Assembly (NCBI RefSeq): GCF_003334405.1
Contig: NZ_QOWM01000003.1
Source: Escherichia coli
Lineage (GTDB): Bacteria; Pseudomonadota; Gammaproteobacteria; Enterobacterales; Enterobacteriaceae
DNA length: 64,000 bases
Direction: 5' to 3' (one strand)
Shown here in pieces: positions 30,238 through 30,260 of this stretch. The first letter of the stretch is position 1. Every line of letters begins with the position of its first letter. The notes below the pieces were generated by a model. The model was given only the letters and a program-made list of their open reading frames with translations. It was not told the DNA's origin and ran no database searches. The translations under genes were made by a program, and so were the position numbers.

Positions 30238-30260
30238 ACTTTAGTTACAACATACTTATT
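30238..30260 (-). promoter_or_regulatory. Replication terminator site TerB (Tus-binding)
   Basis: ACTTTAGTTACAACATACTTATT on the + strand is the exact reverse complement of the TerB consensus AATAAGTATGTTGTAACTAAAGT; sits 11-33 bp upstream of the tus start, consistent with tus autoregulation. Confidence 0.9.

Follow-up and report, generated by a model that had tools for sequence, protein, structure and literature searches.

A chromosomal TerB site in the tus promoter region of a close relative of Escherichia coli K-12

The closest described system is TerB of Escherichia coli K-12 (terB, formerly T2). Its 23-mer, AATAAGTATGTTGTAACTAAAGT, is given as terB in PMC4752480, and the identical 23-mer is also present in the text of PMC4499146, which describes Tus binding and polar arrest for this very sequence. 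By convention, the 5′ A of AATAAG... is numbered 1, and positions 19–23 make up the permissive end; the non-permissive face is the end with positions 1–6, at which unwinding of the G6/C6 pair lets C6 flip into Tus (PMC4499146). TerB is placed in the tus promoter region, and Tus is described as autoregulating its own gene, in PMC8707476 and PMC8347550, which cite Roecklein 1991, 1992; PMC10331603 likewise has TerB within the tus promoter together with Tus autoregulation. Repression of tus by Tus through TerB is credited to Roecklein 1991/1992 and Natarajan 1991 in PMC8707476 and PMC10331603. No other E. coli Ter site is described as part of the tus promoter and as a regulator of tus transcription (PMC8347550, PMC10331603). 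At terB, pausing of forks and occupancy by Tus in ChIP have been reported, and PMC10331603 summarises the underlying ChIP-seq and 2-D gel data.

Beyond E. coli, Toft et al. 2021 described tus-vicinal Ter sites in Salmonella, Dickeya, Proteus, Xenorhabdus, Edwardsiella, Yersinia, and Cedecea. As in the type I traps of that study (Edwardsiella tarda Ter1, Dickeya, Proteus, Yersinia), Ter lies directly upstream of tus, and in the same orientation, at the locus analysed here. Type I traps have their tus-vicinal Ter as the innermost site; E. coli, by contrast, has TerC inside TerB, which makes its trap type II. A more distant parallel may be drawn with RTP and its Ter sites next to rtp in Bacillus subtilis, where the terminator gene likewise adjoins one of its own sites and is autoregulated. 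The RTP fold, a dimeric winged helix, is unrelated to that of Tus, and the sites are unrelated as well, so that the resemblance is one of analogy and not of homology. For RTP, PMC10331603 lists Ahn et al. 1993 among its references.

Here, we analysed a 64-kb stretch of E. coli DNA, referred to as the window throughout. Read directly on both strands, its minus strand from 30260 to 30238 is AATAAGTATGTTGTAACTAAAGT, identical in 23 of 23 bases to published terB and located at the same distance from the tus ATG as in K-12. This is the single match in the window at 0 mismatches; no further match occurs in the 64 kb at up to 3 mismatches, and 100 dinucleotide-preserving shuffles yielded 0 matches at the same tolerance, the chance expectation being none. 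The original prediction of an exact TerB on the minus strand is thus borne out by the published sequence. Only its wording as a “TerB consensus” requires correction: the sequence is exact, and the name TerB denotes one particular site instead of a consensus. When the bases were re-read for core mismatches, both the GTTGTAAC core (30251–30244, minus strand) and G6 were intact. G6 is the minus-strand base at 30255, and C6 is its plus-strand partner. The coordinates of the site and its surroundings are compiled in the table.

Table. Features of the TerB–tus locus in window coordinates.
Feature	Position	Strand	Basis or description
TerB, 23-bp Tus-binding replication terminator site	30238..30260	minus	exact unique match, core consensus, published terB
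TerB-to-ATG spacer GGTTAATATT, 10 nt	30228..30237	minus	bases read directly
tus, 309-aa DNA replication terminus site-binding protein	29298..30227	minus	PDB, TIGR02648, PF05472, RefSeq b1610
putative tus promoter	30260..30288	minus	by-eye reading; −35 TGGTCA 30288–30283, 17-nt spacer, TGc, −10 TATAAA 30265–30260
rstB, sensor kinase	30303..31604	minus	upstream of tus, same strand

Like TerA, TerC, TerD, and further Ter sites, TerB contains the core GNRNGTTGTAAYKA with the G6/C6 pair and is served by the same Tus protein. This 14-nt Ter core consensus (positions 6–19) is matched exactly within the window only at 30242–30255 on the minus strand. Three other matches, at 8135, 9932, and 38353, carry 1 mismatch, and in each of them G6 or the core is broken; the total of 4 matches in the window compares with 1.67 expected, the one-mismatch number being at chance level. 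In sum, the site combines the features that define Ter sites, namely the GNRNGTTGTAAYKA core, the G6/C6 pair, a cognate Tus gene, and the orientation appropriate to its replichore, with those specific for TerB, which are all 23 of 23 bases of AATAAGTATGTTGTAACTAAAGT and the location between rstB and tus.

The product of the adjacent tus gene aligns end to end with the PDB entries 1ECR/2EWJ/2I05/2I06 (E=1.5e-208), among which 2I06 is the entry for the locked Tus–Ter complex. It scores 549.9 bits against the NCBIfam equivalog TIGR02648 (cut-off 178.3) and reaches 1.9e-136 against Pfam PF05472. For the start of the gene, RefSeq and the crystallised protein (residues 1–309 aligned to 1–309) concur on the ATG at 30227–30225 (minus strand). 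Ten nucleotides therefore separate Ter position 23 from the ATG, which confirms the placement of TerB 11–33 bp upstream of the tus start. This 10-nt spacer would carry whatever ribosome-binding signal tus has. A start at GTG 30239, four codons earlier and inside TerB, was considered and rejected: both RefSeq and the crystallised protein have the ATG as their start, and a 9-nt spacer, as in E. albertii and Enterobacter, shifts the GTG position out of frame.

Upstream of tus, rstA and rstB are both encoded on the minus strand. The rstB stop codon (30305–30303) lies 75 nt ahead of the tus ATG, and TerB is contained within this 75-nt rstB–tus spacer. On the opposite side, fumC (plus strand) converges on tus (minus strand), and the two 3′ ends overlap by 4 bp (29298–29301); a consensus scan detected no terminator-like hairpin at this overlap. 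Antisense read-through out of fumC would meet TerB on its permissive side. The arrangement rstA-rstB-TerB-tus with convergent fumC is that of the K-12 TerB locus, and 29200–31700 is 100% identical to a K-12 MG1655 record. Unlike the site itself, which shows no differences, the strain overall is 99.92% identical to K-12 over 57 kb.

By BLAST against MG1655 1,650,000–1,715,000, the window is the reverse complement of ~1,714,581–1,651,549 (~1.6505–1.7146 Mb) at 99.9% identity, and for window positions 5487–62937 the MG1655 coordinate equals 1,714,486 minus the window coordinate. TerB accordingly maps to 1,684,226–1,684,248 on the plus strand of MG1655 and is immediately followed by tus (1,684,259–1,685,188). 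The positions of dif (1,590,750–1,590,777) and of the TerC core (1,609,162–1,609,175, oriented as TerB) are those of the MG1655 reference, both lying outside the window; oriC of MG1655 is at 3,925,744–3,925,975. On this map, the clockwise distance from dif to TerB is 93.5 kb; TerC lies 75 kb nearer to dif than TerB, and the point opposite oriC is ~79 kb away from TerB. TerB has the same orientation as TerC and lies on the same side of dif; on that side, TerC is the innermost barrier of the fork trap and TerB comes second. The order on MG1655 is dif, TerC, TerB, with TerC between the other two, as in a type II trap.

The matS consensus GTGACACTGTCAC occurs once in the window as an exact match at 10472–10484 (0.03 expected by chance), inside ydgJ by the MG1655 map. 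matS marks the Ter macrodomain, and the single site fits this domain. The assignment of the window to the chromosomal terminus region, made originally from TerB, is upheld by collinearity with MG1655 1.65–1.71 Mb, the distance of 93.5 kb to dif, and the presence of matS.

Collinearity with MG1655 ends exactly at the end of IS2E, and window positions 62938–64000 carry on into prophage genes. They comprise an uninterrupted integrase, an excisionase, and an exonuclease at a Qin-type prophage edge, an arrangement shared by ATCC 8739 and many further strains. Since the prophage integrase is intact where K-12 has IS2E, the source is a close relative of K-12 and not K-12 itself. Window positions 5487–5912 hold a 96-bp tandem repeat (4.4 copies, 89% match) inside rsxC by the MG1655 map; the array is one 96-bp unit shorter than in MG1655, an in-frame copy-number polymorphism. 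No Rfam family was found at the gathering threshold in window positions 1–64000.

Within TerB, the non-permissive position 1 is at 30260 on the rstB side, and the permissive position 23 is at 30238 on the tus side. As the non-permissive end faces rstB, blocked forks are those running from high to low window coordinates, i.e. clockwise in MG1655, and the orientation of the site does set the direction of the block as anticipated. GC skew on the window plus strand is +0.022 overall and +0.023 and +0.021 on either side of TerB, with positive values in 44 of the 64 1-kb blocks. All 3 KOPS motifs (GGGNAGGG) in the window are on the plus strand (plus:minus 3:0). A leading strand typically has positive GC skew, and KOPS motifs are oriented towards dif. 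GC skew and KOPS thus identify the plus strand as leading and the normal fork as running from low to high coordinates, towards dif, so that it meets the permissive end (position 23) of TerB first. The GC-skew check proposed along with the original prediction hence places the permissive face of TerB towards the normal fork. The skew does not switch at TerB, as expected for a switch that lies at dif. Chi orientation in the window was uninformative (5 versus 4).

In the proposed mechanism, a Tus monomer would bind the TerB duplex. For a fork coming in at the position 1 end, DnaB would move 5′→3′ on the minus strand, which bears G6, and unwind the duplex up to G6/C6. The freed C6 (plus strand, 30255) would then flip into the cytosine pocket of Tus and lock the complex. 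DnaB on the G6-bearing minus strand leaves C6 free, which is the geometry demanded by the mousetrap model. A fork from the position 23 end (30238, tus side) would displace Tus instead. In MG1655, the arrested fork would be a clockwise fork that is already past dif and TerC, and the normal counter-clockwise fork would pass. Binding, the C6 lock, in vivo fork pausing, and autoregulation at TerB are taken from the literature.

With respect to regulation, the original prediction had placed TerB in the tus promoter region as the site of Tus autoregulation. The position is observed in the window, and the autoregulation is supplied by the literature (PMC8707476, PMC8347550). A consensus scan of 29200–30700 called no sigma-70 promoter in the 75-nt rstB–tus spacer; its only promoter-like match falls inside tus. 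By eye, a putative promoter can be read immediately upstream of TerB (see table). The scan missed TGGTCA-17-TGcTATAAA because its rule demands T at the last −10 base, which here is A. This last base of the putative −10 is Ter position 1 (30260), and the tus start is consequently predicted to lie inside TerB, at ~30254–30252, corresponding to about Ter positions 7–9 and inside the Tus footprint. Three points are our inference: which hexamers exactly make up the promoter, where transcription starts, and that repression works by steric occlusion. Bound Tus would occlude RNA polymerase at the tus promoter, and Tus occupancy of the TerB operator would keep the Tus level low and self-limited.

The same geometry leaves room for a further role in transcription. 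A crude consensus scan of 29200–30700 found no terminator-like hairpin between rstB and tus; for this reason, read-through from rstAB is possible, and such transcription from the rstB side would run into the non-permissive face of Tus–TerB. In addition to its role as operator and fork barrier, the Tus–TerB complex might thus constitute a polar transcriptional roadblock that insulates tus from rstAB read-through, and tus expression would then depend only on Tus occupancy. The layout is consistent with this: tus follows rstB on the same strand, with 75 nt and no terminator-like hairpin between the end of rstB and the tus ATG, and the non-permissive TerB end faces rstB. Mohanty, Sahoo and Bastia reportedly described polar blockage of RNA polymerase by Tus–Ter in 1996. 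We regard the roadblock as possible but put it forward only tentatively.

The position of TerB behind TerC raises the converse question of whether TerB is essentially only the tus operator and arrests no forks in normal cells, with TerC catching clockwise forks first. TerC, oriented like TerB, is indeed found on the dif side of it at a distance of 75 kb, and Toft et al. assign E. coli to their “type II” class, where a Ter site other than the tus-vicinal one is innermost. However, fork pausing at terB has already been reported, the G6/C6 pair and the full lock core are retained at TerB, and TerB serves as a standard barrier in vitro and at ectopic insertions. An exclusive operator function is therefore highly improbable, and TerB is best regarded as barrier and operator in one.

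Of 5426 complete E. coli genomes, 5425 contain the segment 29200–31700, which matches the K-12 records at 100% identity. Across the 46 bp from the −10 through TerB to the ATG, 2330 complete E. coli genomes are identical to the window, and 2511 others show 90–99% identity. Among five E. coli strains (the window and four variants), Ter changes are limited to positions 1, 2, and 7, and the variant strains also differ in the spacer upstream of TerB; Ter positions 3–6 and 8–23, the 10-nt spacer, and the ATG are invariant. This alignment agrees with the “1–2 SNPs/23 bp” stated for terB in PMC10331603.

A natural disruption of the tus start or its TerB promoter is found in E. coli 2017.02.03CC (NZ_AP027748.1 2207595–2211433), where an IS4-like ISVsa5 is located between rstB and tus at the window equivalent of ~30180–30300. 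The tus gene of this strain is 5′-shortened (882 nt versus 930).

To cover relatives, one genome per species was scanned with the 15-mer ATGTTGTAACTAAAG (positions 8–22), followed by tblastn with Tus. The ATGTTGTAACTAAAG scan returned at least 120 loci, mostly chance matches in AT-rich genomes. Among the matches listed, a tus-adjacent Ter occurs in E. albertii (Tus 94% identical), Enterobacter sp. R1(2018) (60%), and Photorhabdus asymbiotica (51%), and about a dozen Enterobacterales Ter sites are located away from tus. In all three relatives, Ter is oriented as in the window, lies 9–10 nt before the tus ATG, and keeps G6. Further, −10-like hexamers (TATATA, TATAAT, TATACT) abut Ter in these species, each with a −35-like hexamer 16–17 nt upstream. 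Identity at Ter positions 8–22 in the relatives is given by construction of the search, and placement, orientation, and flanks are independent of it. The conservation of a tus-vicinal Ter is already published.

Tus homologues also occur on plasmids. In PLSDB, 1282 plasmid records contain a Tus-annotated protein that is ~29% identical to E. coli Tus; the carriers are mostly conjugative plasmids (IncC and others), and their hosts include Klebsiella, Salmonella, and Escherichia among other genera. In three examples, an IncC plasmid, a Proteus plasmid, and a Pseudoalteromonas plasmid, the 700 bp upstream of the Tus gene contain no E. coli-type Ter core. The cognate sites of the plasmid homologues presumably differ from E. 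coli-type Ter, and these homologues have no bearing on the arrangement analysed here. Among tus-region matches, 1 of 5431 is on a plasmid-labelled record. The 4.8-Mb PLSDB “plasmid” NZ_OL790696.1, with a 99.7% identical tus, is evidently a misfiled chromosome.

A chance or relict sequence without function can be dismissed, given a 23/23 match that has no counterpart in the shuffles even at 3 mismatches, a position next to the gene for its own cognate binding protein, a locus present in all but one of the complete E. coli genomes with variation limited to Ter-tolerated positions, and a Ter geometry kept as far as Photorhabdus. We assign 30238–30260 as the chromosomal TerB of E. coli, which acts as a Tus-dependent polar fork barrier and as the tus operator, with a probability of about 97%. 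No observation speaks against this assignment, and its least secure part is the exact promoter.

The identification of TerB is real, correctly read, and already known. Nothing about it is biologically new: sequence, polarity, and operator role of TerB were described around 1988–1991 and are found in current reviews. Its value is that of an annotation anchor, which fixes the terminus region, the direction of the normal fork, and the second barrier to clockwise forks. Beyond this, the fixed promoter–Ter–ATG geometry, shared by E. coli and Photorhabdus with its only 51% identical Tus, might reflect selection for more than simple repression, combining a polar roadblock to rstAB read-through with a coupling of Tus supply to the fork, a proposal that we consider speculative and rather unlikely. 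The geometry also forces transcription of tus to run head-on against its normal replication fork, and Tus supply would thereby be coupled to fork passage: each passage of a permissive fork would strip Tus from TerB and briefly de-repress tus.
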